Shown here: positions 3,456 through 51,400 of the stretch, piece after piece
Position numbering within the stretch: position 1 is the first letter of the stretch
Layout of the letters: each line of letters starts with the position of its first letter
Source: Isurus oxyrinchus
Taxonomy: Eukaryota
Length of the DNA stretch: 64,000 bases
Direction: 5' to 3'
Assembly (NCBI GenBank): GCA_026770705.1
Contig: JANJGN010000012.1
Span: 136,028,001 to 136,092,000 of the forward strand
Notes under the pieces: model-generated
Told to the model about the DNA's origin: nothing
The model's database searches: none
Seen by the model: only the letters and a program-made list of their open reading frames with translations
Program-made: the position numbers and the translations under genes

Positions 3456-6400
3456 CTATAGGGAAGATATGGAAACAAACAAAATCAGAACCATGATAGT
3501 ATTACCTGAAATTAAGTTCAATTACTCATTATGATACTTACCCGCCAGACTCCAGCCACAACTCATAGGTCATGTTATAAAACAGCTAGCTTTGTTTTCT
3601 GTGGAAGAATCCTCTTCCTTTTTGCCCCAGAAGTTATTTTATTCTTGGATCCAACTGCTCTCTGCCATAAATGCCAGTCCCTGACTTGTATTCAGGTTTT
3701 TCTCCCAGGGAGAGAAGTACCTTACTGCTGTCCTACTCAGTCTGACTTACAGAAGAGAGCACACGCGAGAGATCACGAGTTTGTGTGCACAAGTAGAGTT
3801 CTCAAGCTCACTATAGGTGCTCTCAAGCAGCATTACATCTTTGATTGTGTTCTGGGGTAGCAAGTGACAGACACAGCTCTTGGTATCAAATATTGCTCTT
3901 CATGGGCATATTGAACTCTGCTGTACAATACAAACCCACATTCCAAGTGATTTACTTAAGCTGCTGGCATTAACCAGGCGTTCATAGACTGACATTTCTC
4001 AGGTGGTTTACAATATGGGTTGCAGGAAATGCAGGAAGAACTGTGCGCCTACCATCAACTAGTCTCCTATAGTCTAAAAGCACCTGATCATTGAAGGGCA
4101 CTTGACAGTCCTGGTATCTGCTTCACTGGAAAAAAACTATAAAAAGCTAGTGGAGGCAAAATGAAGGAAAAAAAACAAAGTAGGATTATAATAAATTTCT
4201 TCATCCAAGGCATGAACCACACACCCTCACTAAAGAGGAATAATCTAGTTAAGTTTGACATAAATGGAGATGGAAGACTAAAAGAGGTTAAAAGGGCTCA
4301 AGACAAAGAAGTGCCCATGCTTGCCTTGTATTTACCCCCAGTGAATACAGAAGACCAGGAAAGAGTCATACCGGACTCAAAATGTTAACTCTGTTTCTCT
4401 CCCCACAGATGCTGCCAGACCTTCTAAGTTTTCCAGTGCTTTTATAATAAAAACAAAGAGCTGTTTTTGTTTTCTAAAAAATCTTTTTCTTTCTCCCATT
4501 TACTAAATAGGAGACAAATTGCTCCATCTTCACTGGACAAAATATTGTAAGAAGTTACGTATCTGAATTTGGGAGAAGTCCTTTATGTCCAGGTGTTAAC
4601 AAAGAAAATATGTTCCATGGGTTTTTCCACAGGACTTTGAGAGAAAAGAAATTCTCCACATTTCCATCTTAAGTGGTAGACTTCTTATTCATAAACTGTG
4701 TCCCCTAGTTCTAGTCTCTTCCACAAGTGGAAACATCCTCCCGATATCCACCCTATCAAATCTCCTCGGGATCTTATATGTTTCAATAAGATCCATCCCT
4801 CATTCTTCTAAACTCCAATGGGTATAGGCCCGACTTGTTCAACCTTTCTTCAAAAGATAAGCCTCTCATCCCAGGAATGAGTCGAGTGAATTTTCTCTAA
4901 GCTGCTTCTAATGCAATTATATCTTTTTTTCAAATAAGGAGACCAAAACTGTGCACAGTATTCCAGATGTGGTCGCAGCAAAGACCTGCACAGCTGCAAT
5001 AAAATTTCTCTACTTTTATATTCCATTTCCCTTGCAATAAACAGCAACATTCCATTTATCTTCCTAAGACTGAGAAGCGTCCACATAGAGCTTCACAAGA
5101 TATTAAACAGTATAGAAGGAGTAAATTCAGACAAGTGCATCAAAATAAACTGTGAAAGTAATATTTACGCTAGCAAGTGACAAATTTAGGACAAATGGCA
5201 AGAAGTTCTTCTCATACAGAGTGGCAGAGTGGTGAGCACATGGAATGGAGCTCCAGGAAGCGGAATGGAGACAAAACCCCCTGGAATCACGTAACAAACA
5301 ATTGGGTGCAGTGATCAAGCAGTATCTTTAGGAATGAGGTTTCTAAACAATTAATCAATCAATCTGTGAAGCTGCTTTGGGCTGGAATCATTTGGTATTA
5401 TCACTCAGAGGCTGTAAAGCTACTGGTGTAGGAAGTGAAACCTTCACTGCCTCCTACTGAAACAGTGATTTTAAGTGGGTCAGAGTAAGGAAAGTTATAT
5501 TTCACATTCATGAATGCTTTACCTTACCTGGGAAACAAATATGGAAAAAAGCATTTCATTTGCCAATACTGAGCACAAATATTTAAAGTTTAGTGCTTGA
5601 GGAATGTAAAGAACAGAAATTGTATTTGTACCATCAAAACAACTGAAAGGTATCTCCTCAAAATGCCCAACTCACCAGGTATGGCTTCTTGGCAGCCAAT
5701 TTTCCTTCCCTACTTTTTCAACACAGAATTTCTGAGGACCATTGCTCCCTGTATCAAAATACAAAAAGGAATTACCTGTTAGCACTTTTCACTTGTGATT
5801 AACAGGAACAACATTCATTTACATAGCACCTTTAACACAACAAACGTCCCAAGATGCTTTACAAGTATTATAAAACAAAAGGTTGACACCAAATTACATA
5901 AGGAGACATTAGACCAGGTGACCAAAAGCTTCGTCAGGGGCAGGCTTCAAGAAGTATCTTAACAGAAGAAAGGGGCAAAGAAATTTAGGGAGAGATTTTC
6001 AGAGTTTATGGTCGTGGCAGTTGAAGGCTGCCAATGGCAGAGCAATTAAAATTGGGAATGCTTAAGAGGTTAGAATTGGCAGAGGACAGACATCTGGTGG
6101 GGCTGCAAGGCTGGAGGAGATAGGGAGGCACGAGGCTATTATAAGATATGAAAACAAATCAAAGAGTTCTAAAAGTGCTCAGCCTGATGCCAATGTAGGT
6201 CAGTTGACAGAGAAGAGATGGGTGAGTTGGATGTTATCAATAAGGACACGGGTAGCAAAGTTTTGAATGACCTTAAATTTACACAGGGTAAAACTAGGGA
6301 AGCCAGCTAGGAGTGCATTGGAACAGTCAAGCCTAGAGGTAACAAAGGCACGGATTAAAGCAGTGATTGGAGAGAATATTTATAGATAGCAGAATGCTAA

Positions 6401-48400: not shown

Positions 48401-51400
48401 AAGGGAGGAAGTAAAGGGGCAGGTGTTGCACCTTTTGTGATTGCATGGGAGGATGTTGTGGGAAGGGGATAAGGAGTTGGGGGCGATGGAGGAGTGGACC
48501 AGGGTGCCACGGAGGGAATGGTCCCTACGGAATGCTGATAGGGGTCAGAGGGGAAAATGTGTTTTGGTGTTGGCATCATGCTGAAGTTAATGGAAATGGC
48601 GGAGGATGACCTTTTGAATTGGAACAGATGAGACGGGGGTAGAGGAACTGGAAGAATGGGATGAAGTTCTTCCAGAAAGTAAGGCGTGAAGAGCTGTAGT
48701 CGAGATAGCTGTGGGAGTCGGTAAGCTTGTAATGAATATGGTAGACAGAGAGAGGTCAAGAAAGGGAAGGAAAATATCAGAGGTGGACCATGTGAAGATG
48801 AGAGAGAGGTGGAAATTGGAAGCAAAATCAATAAATTTTTCCAAGTCCAGGTGAGAGCATGAAGTGACATCGATACAATCATCAATGTACTGGAAAAAAG
48901 AGTTATGGGAGGGGGCCTGAGTAGGACTGGAACAGGGCATGTTCCACGTACCCCACAAAAAGACAGACATAACTGGGGCCCATGTGGGTACCTATAGTCA
49001 CACCTTTTATTTGGAGCAAGTGAGACAAGTTGAAGGAGAAATTATTCAGTGAGAGAACAAGTTCAGCTAGGTGGAGGAGAGTGAGTGGTGGATGGGGATT
49101 GTTCAGCCCTCTGTTCAAGGGAGAATTGGAGAGCCCTCAGACCTTCCTGGTGAGGATGGAGGTGTAGAGGGGCTGGACGTCCATGGTGAAGATGTGGCGG
49201 TTAGGGACAGGAAACTGGAAATTGTTGATATGACGTAGGGTGTCAGAGGAATTGCGAATGTAGGTGGGAACAGACTGCACAAGGGAAAAGAGAATGGAGT
49301 CAAGATAAGAAGAAATTAGTTCCGTGGCGCAAGAGCTAAGCTGACACGATGCATCTACCAGGATAGTGCTCTTTTGTGGGTTTTGGGAAGAAGGTAGAAG
49401 TGGGCTCTACGGGGTTGGGAGACTGAGGTTGGAAGCTGTGCAGGGAAGATCTCCAGAGGAGATGAAATCAATGACAGCCTTGGAAAAAATGGCTTGATGT
49501 TCGGTGGTGGGGTCATGGTCCAGGGAACGTAGGAAGAAGTGTCTTGAAAGTTGGTGCTCAGCCTCTGCAAGGTAGAGAGGTTAGTACATCAGACAATAAA
49601 AGCACCACCCTTGTCAGCAGGTTTGATAACAAAGTCAGGGCTGGGCCTGAGAGAACGGAGTGCAGCAAATTCAGAAGGAAACAGGTTGGAGTGGGTGAAG
49701 TTAAGATGGCCGATGTTACATCGACATTTCTCAATGAAAAGATCAAGAGCAGGTAAGAGGCCAGAGGGAGGGGTCCAGGCAGAGGGAGAATACTGGAGGC
49801 TGGTGAAAAAATCCATTGAATGGACAGGGGGGCAGGTGGGACACTCCTGCCCAAAGAAGTGAGCACGGAAACGAAGGTGACAGAAGAAGAGTCCGACATT
49901 CATTGAAGTGAGGGCATAAGGAGATGAAGCTGGATCCATGGCTGAGTACAGAATATTTAGCATTGGGGGCAGGGTGGGGTTCAGGGGATAGAGGGTATAA
50001 TGAATACATGGCATGGGGTGGGATTAGAAGAAGGGATGGAGCAGAGGGATGGAATGGGATGGTTTGGAGGGTGCCGGATGGGTGTTGGTATCTGTGAGTT
50101 GTTAGAGCTTGCGTTCCTTAACACCTGAAAGGAAGGGAAAAAGTTTCTTGTTAAGGCGTTGGATGAAACGAAGCATGAAATGGAACCTCTCCCTCTACCT
50201 GGACCCCTGCCTCTCTTCAGCTCTGAAGATGACCGACATATGGGCTTGAAACGTTAACTATGTTTCTCTCTCCACAGATCTTACCAGACCTGTTGAGTTT
50301 TTGCCGCATTATCTGTTTCTTTTTTTAGATTTCCAGCATTCACAGTATTTTGTTTTTATCGAATCGGCCCTTTATTCTGAGACTGCAACCAGTGTGTTCC
50401 AGATTCTTCAACCAGGAGAAACATTTTGACTGTTTTTCCAGACAGCGATTATTACTTTATATCAGTGTTATCATTGCAATTTTAGAAGAGGAAGGAGAGG
50501 CTAGGAGTCTCTATTTTCCAAACATCGCTCCATCGTATGAAGAACATTTAAGTAGGAACCCCAACATACCACTTGCTTGGCTAGGAATGCACATTGCAAA
50601 GTTAGTAGCATGGTTCCTTGAGCAGCAATTAAGTCATTGTGCATCTGGTGATAGCAGAGCAGCTTCATATATGGAACAGCGTGAAGAGCCCAATGAACTC
50701 ACATTTCATGTTATTAGACTTTAATGTCTCACAGACATCCAGAGTGGCACAGCCGAGGAGGACATCCGATTTCAGGGTCTGATGGCTCCACACTCTGAAA
50801 GTGATCATGCTGAATGGTGTTACAATCCTGTGTGAATAAAAAAAGGTAGTGAACAAAATAAGATTTTGAAAAACAAAATTAAGTCTCTGTTTTTATCAAT
50901 TCTTTTGGGTAGCTCAACTGAAAGTGGGAATTAACTCATTTGCAGGTTTCTTCGTGCTGCATTGCTCAAGGGCTGGGGGGGGGGGGGGGTGGGGGGTGCA
51001 AGGATCACATATTACACCTTTCCCTGAGGTTCCACTGGGAAATGTCACAGCCTTCACTTAGTCCTTCCAGGATTGGTAACCAAACTAAGAACTAAGCAGA
51101 GCCGGAATCTCTCTCCACTTTATGGCACTCAGCCATTTTCCATTGTTTCTAATCTGGCCAACTGTACACCAAGGTTTACACAAAGCTCTAGGATGACAGG
51201 TGGTGATGGCTCAATACCAGGGCCACACAATAAGAATGGTCATAAGGGCAATGTAACAAAGATAGCCATGAAACTATAGCCTAACAAGAAACCAATACCT
51301 TCAGACGAGATGTGACGGAAGCAAAGGAGAACAAATTGGCGGGGGGGGGGGGGGGGGGGGAGAGGATAAACAACTTAATTTGTGATTTTTAAGGAATCTT

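Follow-up and report, generated by a model that had tools for sequence, protein, structure and literature searches.

What are the short hammerhead-like modules scattered through the introns of ITCH in the shark Isurus oxyrinchus, and how did they come to be there? The window, by which we mean the whole 64,000-nt stretch analysed (assembly GCA_026770705.1, contig JANJGN010000012.1, positions 136,028,001 to 136,092,000, forward strand), had been described in a sequence-only reading as holding seven such modules in two subfamilies, and a check of the sequence at each site confirmed all seven. A short profile made from the copies themselves, which recovers them by construction, gives exactly seven strong matches in the window, the next match having an E value of 0.0025 and the best on the reversed window one of 0.099; a longer profile, made from other genomic loci, also recovers all seven. 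We conclude that the modules are very probably the hammerhead-bearing pseudo-long terminal repeats (pLTRs) of an abundant Penelope-like retrotransposon (PLE) of the endonuclease-containing (EN+) kind, the short ones being likely copies of only the front end of its RNA, in uncut form.

The identity of the repeat emerges from loci outside the window. Relatives of both subfamilies elsewhere in the genome have a common upstream sequence of variable length, and this shared sequence encodes a GIY-YIG endonuclease, with weak Pfam scores (E 0.009 and 0.08). A search with the endonuclease gave 183,394 first-look candidates in the genome, and among the 150 loci scored there are several open frames of 840-925 aa. 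At one locus, L088, the module stands at both ends of a long open reading frame (ORF) in direct orientation (3495-3606 and 6844-6955); this full pLTR-ORF-pLTR copy starts with the first bases of stem I of the hammerhead and has a target site duplication (TSD) of 10 bp. Another locus, L089, arranged as a partial tandem, contains an 886-aa ORF in which the reverse transcriptase (RT) domain RVT_1 scores above the cut-off (E 8.8e-8) and GIY-YIG below it (E 0.0015). Its translation has a DKG motif, a CX4CxxC linker and a CCHH motif, which match the Neptune/Nematis definition of PMC8557442, these motifs being common to both clades. Because the module flanks complete ORFs with RT and GIY-YIG, it is to be seen as a PLE pLTR and not as a separate ribozyme repeat. 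Remains of both domains also lie upstream of the window copy near 45715.

The features expected of EN+ PLEs are thus present: a single ORF with RT and C-terminal GIY-YIG, direct pLTRs, an inverted 5′ pLTR and a tail of 30-40 bp on one side only. As described for Neptune and Nematis elements (PMC8557442, PMC3846280), where the linker is given as CX2-5CxxC alongside the DKG and CCHH motifs, there are also partial tandems, solo pLTRs and TSDs of 10-14 bp, and we see no architectural difference from these elements. The earlier idea of a high-copy ribozyme repeat that would pass for a generic transposable element therefore holds as far as a high-copy mobile repeat is concerned, and misses that it is an identifiable PLE pLTR with RT and GIY-YIG remains in the window itself. 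The hammerhead is the known pLTR ribozyme of PLEs, found in a lineage where such elements are already annotated as expanded in introns, as reported for the whale shark (10.1101/443036). Stated in this way, the finding extends a known feature to one more lineage.

In the hammerhead itself, stem I is 4 bp long, A9 is followed by an additional A, and stem II, of 5 bp, is closed by a G-C pair; the GAAA, an ACGU palindrome without a loop and a triplet reading GUU or GUC (NUH) complete the motif. Searches used an unselected sample of eight 100-kb blocks chosen by round coordinates, 800 kb in total, from the 4.98-Gb genome. A descriptor for the minimal type I hammerhead gave 33 matches in this sample plus the window, and none in the reversed sequence. 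From descriptor and architecture, the claim made earlier thus appears to be right: a mobile repeat of high copy number carries a minimal type I hammerhead, of the kind that depends on dimers. No hammerhead family was found in an Rfam scan of the window even at an E value of 1; this is a limit of the models and no evidence against a hammerhead. Minimal hammerheads were reported from the pLTRs of metazoan PLEs by Cervera and De la Pena (2014, PMC4209133), with which the shark motif shares the 4-bp stem I, the extra base between positions 9 and 10.1, the G10.1-C11.1 pair, the palindromic 15.2-16.2 without loop III and its presence in both pLTRs. Mostly dispersed single copies and closely spaced pairs on opposite strands are likewise common to both. 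The same paper finds these motifs in Neptune, Poseidon and Xena elements of fish, and we found no shark in its text or searchable supplements. Differences from it are the 5-bp stem II of the shark motif, as against 7-8 bp in the Schistosoma families, and the U or C at position 6 in the young shark subfamilies. A literature search with 'shark genome' and 'hammerhead ribozyme' gave no paper with both terms among the matches listed.

The abundance of the family is considerable. Scanned with a profile of the element's end, the unselected sample has 110 matches and its reversed version none; the successive 100-kb blocks hold 3, 27, 16, 21, 20, 13, 0 and 10 of them. Extrapolated to the genome this amounts to about 0.68 million PLE ends (rough range 0.3-1.1 million), mostly decayed. 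This is far above the descriptor matches given in PMC4209133, 4,000 for coelacanth and 9,000 for Xenopus, the counting methods being different. The hammerhead is spanned by 74 of the sample matches and is intact in 25 of these when position 6 is ignored, in 4 when A6 is required. In all, the family occupies 4.8% of the 800 kb, an abundance sufficient to read the mechanism of insertion from the boundaries of the copies.

Boundary positions are counted from the first A in stem I (+1), which puts the predicted cut between +35 and +36. The 5′ starts of the 110 unselected matches include 37 at -15 to +6, 15 at +7 to +27 and only 2 at +33 to +39; the 3′ ends are bimodal, falling at two fixed points near +100 and +137, with 43 at +96 to +110 and 49 at +133 to +145. 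A pile-up of starts at stem I, and not at the cut site, fits the copying of uncut RNA. When the older subfamily, which alone is covered by this test, was searched with a query holding only the sequence after the cut, 9 of 30 loci started at stem I, 9 upstream, 1 downstream and none at the cut. In head-to-head pairs a short arm is usually joined to a tailed one; this holds for 41 of 51 pairs in all (p 5e-6) and for 20 of the 23 from the unselected sample. Among the 22 non-inverted stem I starts of the sample, 5 have a TSD, compared with 4 of 150 in a mixed-flank control, and TSD-flanked solo ends begin, with no inversion, at the same stem I point as the full-length L088.

The 10-15 bases preceding stem I (-15 to -1, loci L003-L059) differ by subfamily, while the sequence on either side of them is conserved; it looks as if a new unit-unit junction had founded each subfamily. 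Inspection by eye for an additional G in front of +1, such as a cap would leave, showed no enrichment. That the AG in stem I serves as a 3′ splice site, an idea suggested by the Drosophila virilis intron, is unlikely, as the short copies retain the AG.

We propose the following scheme for the formation of the ends. The sequence boundaries make it rather likely that the 5′ end of the element RNA roughly coincides with the first base of stem I. As in the anole PLE in vitro, the element protein would nick both target strands and cDNA would be primed at two internal sites within the 5′ untranslated region (UTR). A cDNA running off the 5′ end after 100-140 nt would leave a solo end, and run-off from both strands a palindromic head-to-head pair, while the long 5′-truncated copies would stem from tandem transcripts primed in their second unit. 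Cleavage by the hammerhead would require a dimer joined through ACGU and would be slow, perhaps aided by protein, and the RNA copied would be mostly uncut. The scheme resembles that for PAc, a PLE of the green anole (Frangieh et al. 2024, PMC11167929), in which two RT start sites define the tail, both target strands are cut and extended, uncut RNA is the main template and the hammerhead lies near the start of the unit. Unlike the shark element, PAc belongs to the Poseidon clade; its ORF begins inside stem II and its RT sites lie within the ORF (PMC11167929), whereas in the shark element some 175 nt separate stem I from the ATG downstream, and both 3′ ends fall in the 5′ UTR.

Several results weigh against this account. 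The starts are taken from a profile alignment and are noisy by several bases, and among the 37 starts at stem I there are 15 that come from arms of inverted pairs and are hence not independent. Four contigs that may derive from RNA together cover all 30 bins of the full element, which does not bear on starts, strand or level. In the older subfamily 11 of the 30 loci start within the hammerhead, so that the pile-up is not sharp there. One near-full-length copy, L093, starts exactly at the +36 cut site (L093:3552, plus strand; 1 of 307 unique matches); it may be a copy of cleaved RNA and may indicate that cleavage occurs at times. As for the ribozyme, 40-nt segments fold no more stably than shuffled sequences, and nearest-neighbour cofolding makes the catalytic dimer about 2 kcal/mol worse than two monomers. 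This energy may, as far as the model goes, be compatible with a protein-assisted dimer and is in line with the low activity reported for minimal PLE hammerheads (PMC4209133) and with the protein dependence reported for the anole hammerhead (PMC11167929). Covariation within the genome is weak. The alignment comprised 45 gap-free copies of the 74 spanning ones plus 3 from the window, copies related too closely to be informative; 93.7% of the cells are paired, 3 pairs have two-sided changes, a number reached in 19 of 500 shuffles, and the covariation score was reached in 41 of 500. The compensation in stem II, said to be A-U in one subfamily and G-C in the other, was not borne out, since the 35 distinct rows have AU 21 times, GU 13 times and GC once, the single GC being the copy at 31652. 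A small G-C branch at this pair exists among loci picked by similarity to that copy. The covariation claim is thus overstated. In favour of a real fold, stems I and II form in the minimum-energy structures of the copies at 20497 and 31652.

The same boundaries can be explained otherwise. The pile-up at stem I might not mark the RNA 5′ end at all and could result from an RT stop, a template switch, fold-back or antisense self-priming of the kind argued for rotifer PLEs in PMC3846280. The inverted junctions among the stem I starts, some of which are joined at a self-complementary AGCT variant, would be accommodated by such a process, as would the lack of an enriched extra G and the starts inside the motif in the older subfamily. 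A stall at the stem should, as we infer, give boundaries on its 3′ side and not past its 5′ edge; moreover, the solo ends with TSDs and L088 share their start point without any inversion, and variable bases before +1 between conserved flanks are what a unit junction is expected to look like. We regard this explanation as unlikely, yet serious enough to be kept in mind.

A second alternative concerns the short units themselves. Those of 100-140 nt could represent a non-autonomous element apart from the PLE, either SINE-like or a retrozyme monomer, that is transcribed independently and uses the PLE protein in trans. Units of fixed length with their own TSDs exist, two of them in the window besides those counted above in the sample, and animal retrozymes derived from PLE pLTRs are described in bioRxiv 10.64898/2026.07.22.740005. 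Against this, solo copies have the diagnostic letters of the ORF-linked ends, subfamily by subfamily, and unit lengths are continuous from 100 bp up to full length. The window copies are at least 350 bp apart and the seven form no head-to-tail array. We consider an independent short element improbable and retain the view that the solo ends are short copies of the PLE front end.

The young elements have a change at position 6 of the catalytic core. Of the 74 spanning copies, 39 have A at this position and 33 have U. The canonical CUGANGA core is found in older subfamilies and in the window copy at 20497 and is absent from the young subfamilies; the second subfamily of the sequence-only reading has a non-canonical core with C or U in place of A6. 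In the youngest subfamily, the one with near-intact ORFs, the core is CUGUCGA (A6U), and the near-full-length ORFs in L085-L092 adjoin CUGUCGA modules, among the matches listed. Median pairwise identity 3′ of the ribozyme is 0.98 for copies with U6 and an AUGA loop (n=21), 0.93 for U6 with other loops (n=6) and 0.74 for the main A6 group (n=22), which probably consists of several subfamilies. In a tree of the endonuclease DNA the A6 copies are on long basal branches and the CUGUCGA copies on the shortest ones; the tree kept 56 of 73 long copies, duplicate loci included, and 4 of its 50 branches are well supported. As an A6 copy (L019) is nested among the U6 copies and support is weak, a single origin of A6U does not follow from the tree.

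By analogy, A6U probably weakens self-cleavage. The A6C variant Bcep176 is reported to lose most of its Mg2+-dependent cleavage and to cut with Mn2+ (Naghdi et al. 2020, PMC7151607); no A6U hammerhead data were found among the matches listed in a literature search, and Lunse et al. (2017) may cover position-6 variants. Bcep176 has the same CUGCUGA core as the copy at 31652 and a small genomic branch, and differs in ribozyme type and context from the shark motif, whose dominant young core is A6U. The role of PLE hammerheads is called unclear in PMC8557442, and cleavage was dispensable for insertion of the anole PLE in vitro (PMC11167929). It is quite possible, if short of probable, that a vertebrate PLE lineage swapped the near-invariant A6 for U and then amplified in several further waves while preserving the fold, routine self-cleavage not being what the motif is kept for. 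If so, the motif, lying at the very start of the RNA, would act as a structure that is bound by protein or overlaps the promoter, or else as a ribozyme gated by either protein or metal; the ends, numbering in the hundreds of thousands, would constitute a genomic record of two-site, two-strand priming on an uncut template. In any case, a natural series of A6, A6U and A6C within one lineage together with near-intact ORFs makes the need of cleavage for PLE mobility testable in a vertebrate element.

Within the window, most copies have broken cores. The copy at 4358..4473 (plus strand, antisense to ITCH) is a decayed PLE end of the older subfamily in which stem II is retained (4363-4378), the 5′ part of the core is gone and GAAA has become AAAA; a search of its flanks found no TSD. 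At 12042..12147 (plus) lies a solo end of the younger subfamily with the short 3′ end, a decayed core and palindrome and an exact TSD (14 of 14, 12028-12041 and 12148-12161). Alone among the window copies, the solo end at 20497..20621 (plus), of the older subfamily, has a canonical core (CUGAAGA); its hammerhead (20497-20535) has both stems and the ACGU palindrome, and its 13-bp TSD with one mismatch (20488-20500 and 20622-20634) overlaps the 5′ strand of stem I. The module at 31230 is the end of a 5′-truncated PLE fragment of about 380 bp (30914..31296, plus) that comprises the last endonuclease codons, the 3′ UTR and an end from which most of the hammerhead is deleted. The young solo end at 31652..31755 (plus) has an intact fold (31652-31690) in which the core is A6C and stem II contains the uncommon G-C pair, and no TSD of at least 8 bp was found when looked for. 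The two remaining copies are the short-ended 3′ pLTR of a long PLE (45711..45813, minus), where GAAAC is changed to GCAAG and the palindrome is gone, and an inverted pLTR with the tailed 3′ end (50207..50356, plus), whose stem II has a 2-nt insertion.

It follows that the seven are not independent modules of ~100-130 nt, since those at 45715 and 50219 belong to one PLE unit and that at 31230 terminates a longer fragment. Of the three copies said to have TSDs of 12-14 bp, those at 12042 and 20497 do, and a wide-window search gave none for the third. Likewise, the loop-less palindromic ACGT of stem III is intact in three of the seven (20497, 31652 and 50219) and not in the others.

The two ends of the long PLE deserve a closer description. 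Its body (45814..50186, minus) is decayed and 5′-truncated, with stops and frameshifts, and consists of the 3′ UTR and endonuclease end (45814-46302) and of RT and endonuclease remains (48162-50186), interrupted at 46303-48161 by a later repeat. The copy at 50219 adjoins the 5′ end of this minus-strand element head-to-head. The sequences on the outer sides of the 45711-50356 unit match neighbouring parts of one older repeat at two loci of the sample; as these flanks are contiguous there, and judging from the sequence, the copies at 45715 and 50219 are probably the two ends of a single, decayed and interrupted PLE insertion of 4.6 kb. The PLE unit itself seemingly sits within that older repeat. 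The repeat inserted into the PLE is a second abundant one, present at 46303-48161, 28617-29494 and 32963-33200, which we take to be CR1-like.

Could the copies serve the gene in which they lie? The minus-strand HECT exons of the window belong to ITCH; its WW exons are at 24.3-32.8 kb on the same strand, WW4 having Itchy as its top PDB match (E 1.6e-34), and its C2 exons are near 50.8 and 52.5 kb. The coding exons located span approximately 3362..52490 (minus), the HECT end being near 3.4 kb. Since the HECT, WW4 and C2 exons delimit ITCH, all seven copies are intronic, in agreement with what had been claimed from the letters, and this is what would speak for intronic ribozymes selected by the host and acting on ITCH pre-mRNA. 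Six of the seven are antisense to ITCH, a bias with p 0.125, and the only sense copy, 45711..45813, has lost its GAAA and palindrome; in addition, the density of 7 modules per 64 kb is ordinary compared with 0-27 per 100 kb elsewhere. Such a host function is highly improbable, and the ITCH introns of the window likely carry the copies as inert passengers.

Two further matches to structured RNAs were seen in the window. A weak match to the Histone3 stem-loop at 24661-24707 (plus; 23 bits against a gathering threshold of 34, E 0.063) is most likely due to chance. At 62704-62766 (plus), upstream of the ITCH C2 exons and on the strand opposite to ITCH, there is a match to the HDV-like CPEB3 ribozyme of Rfam (38.1 bits, gathering threshold 35), with an element start near 62714. 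HDV-like ribozymes are known at the 5′ ends of LINEs, and this one forms the 5′ end of a repeated LINE: among 143 candidates, 40 were scored at 90-97% identity, mostly with the same start, and related loci have endonuclease- and RT-like ORF pieces downstream, as judged by eye. A literature search for 'CPEB3 ribozyme' and 'shark' gave no paper with both terms among the matches listed. Being close to the mammalian CPEB3 ribozyme, the LINE ribozyme may bear on the origin of the mammalian one.

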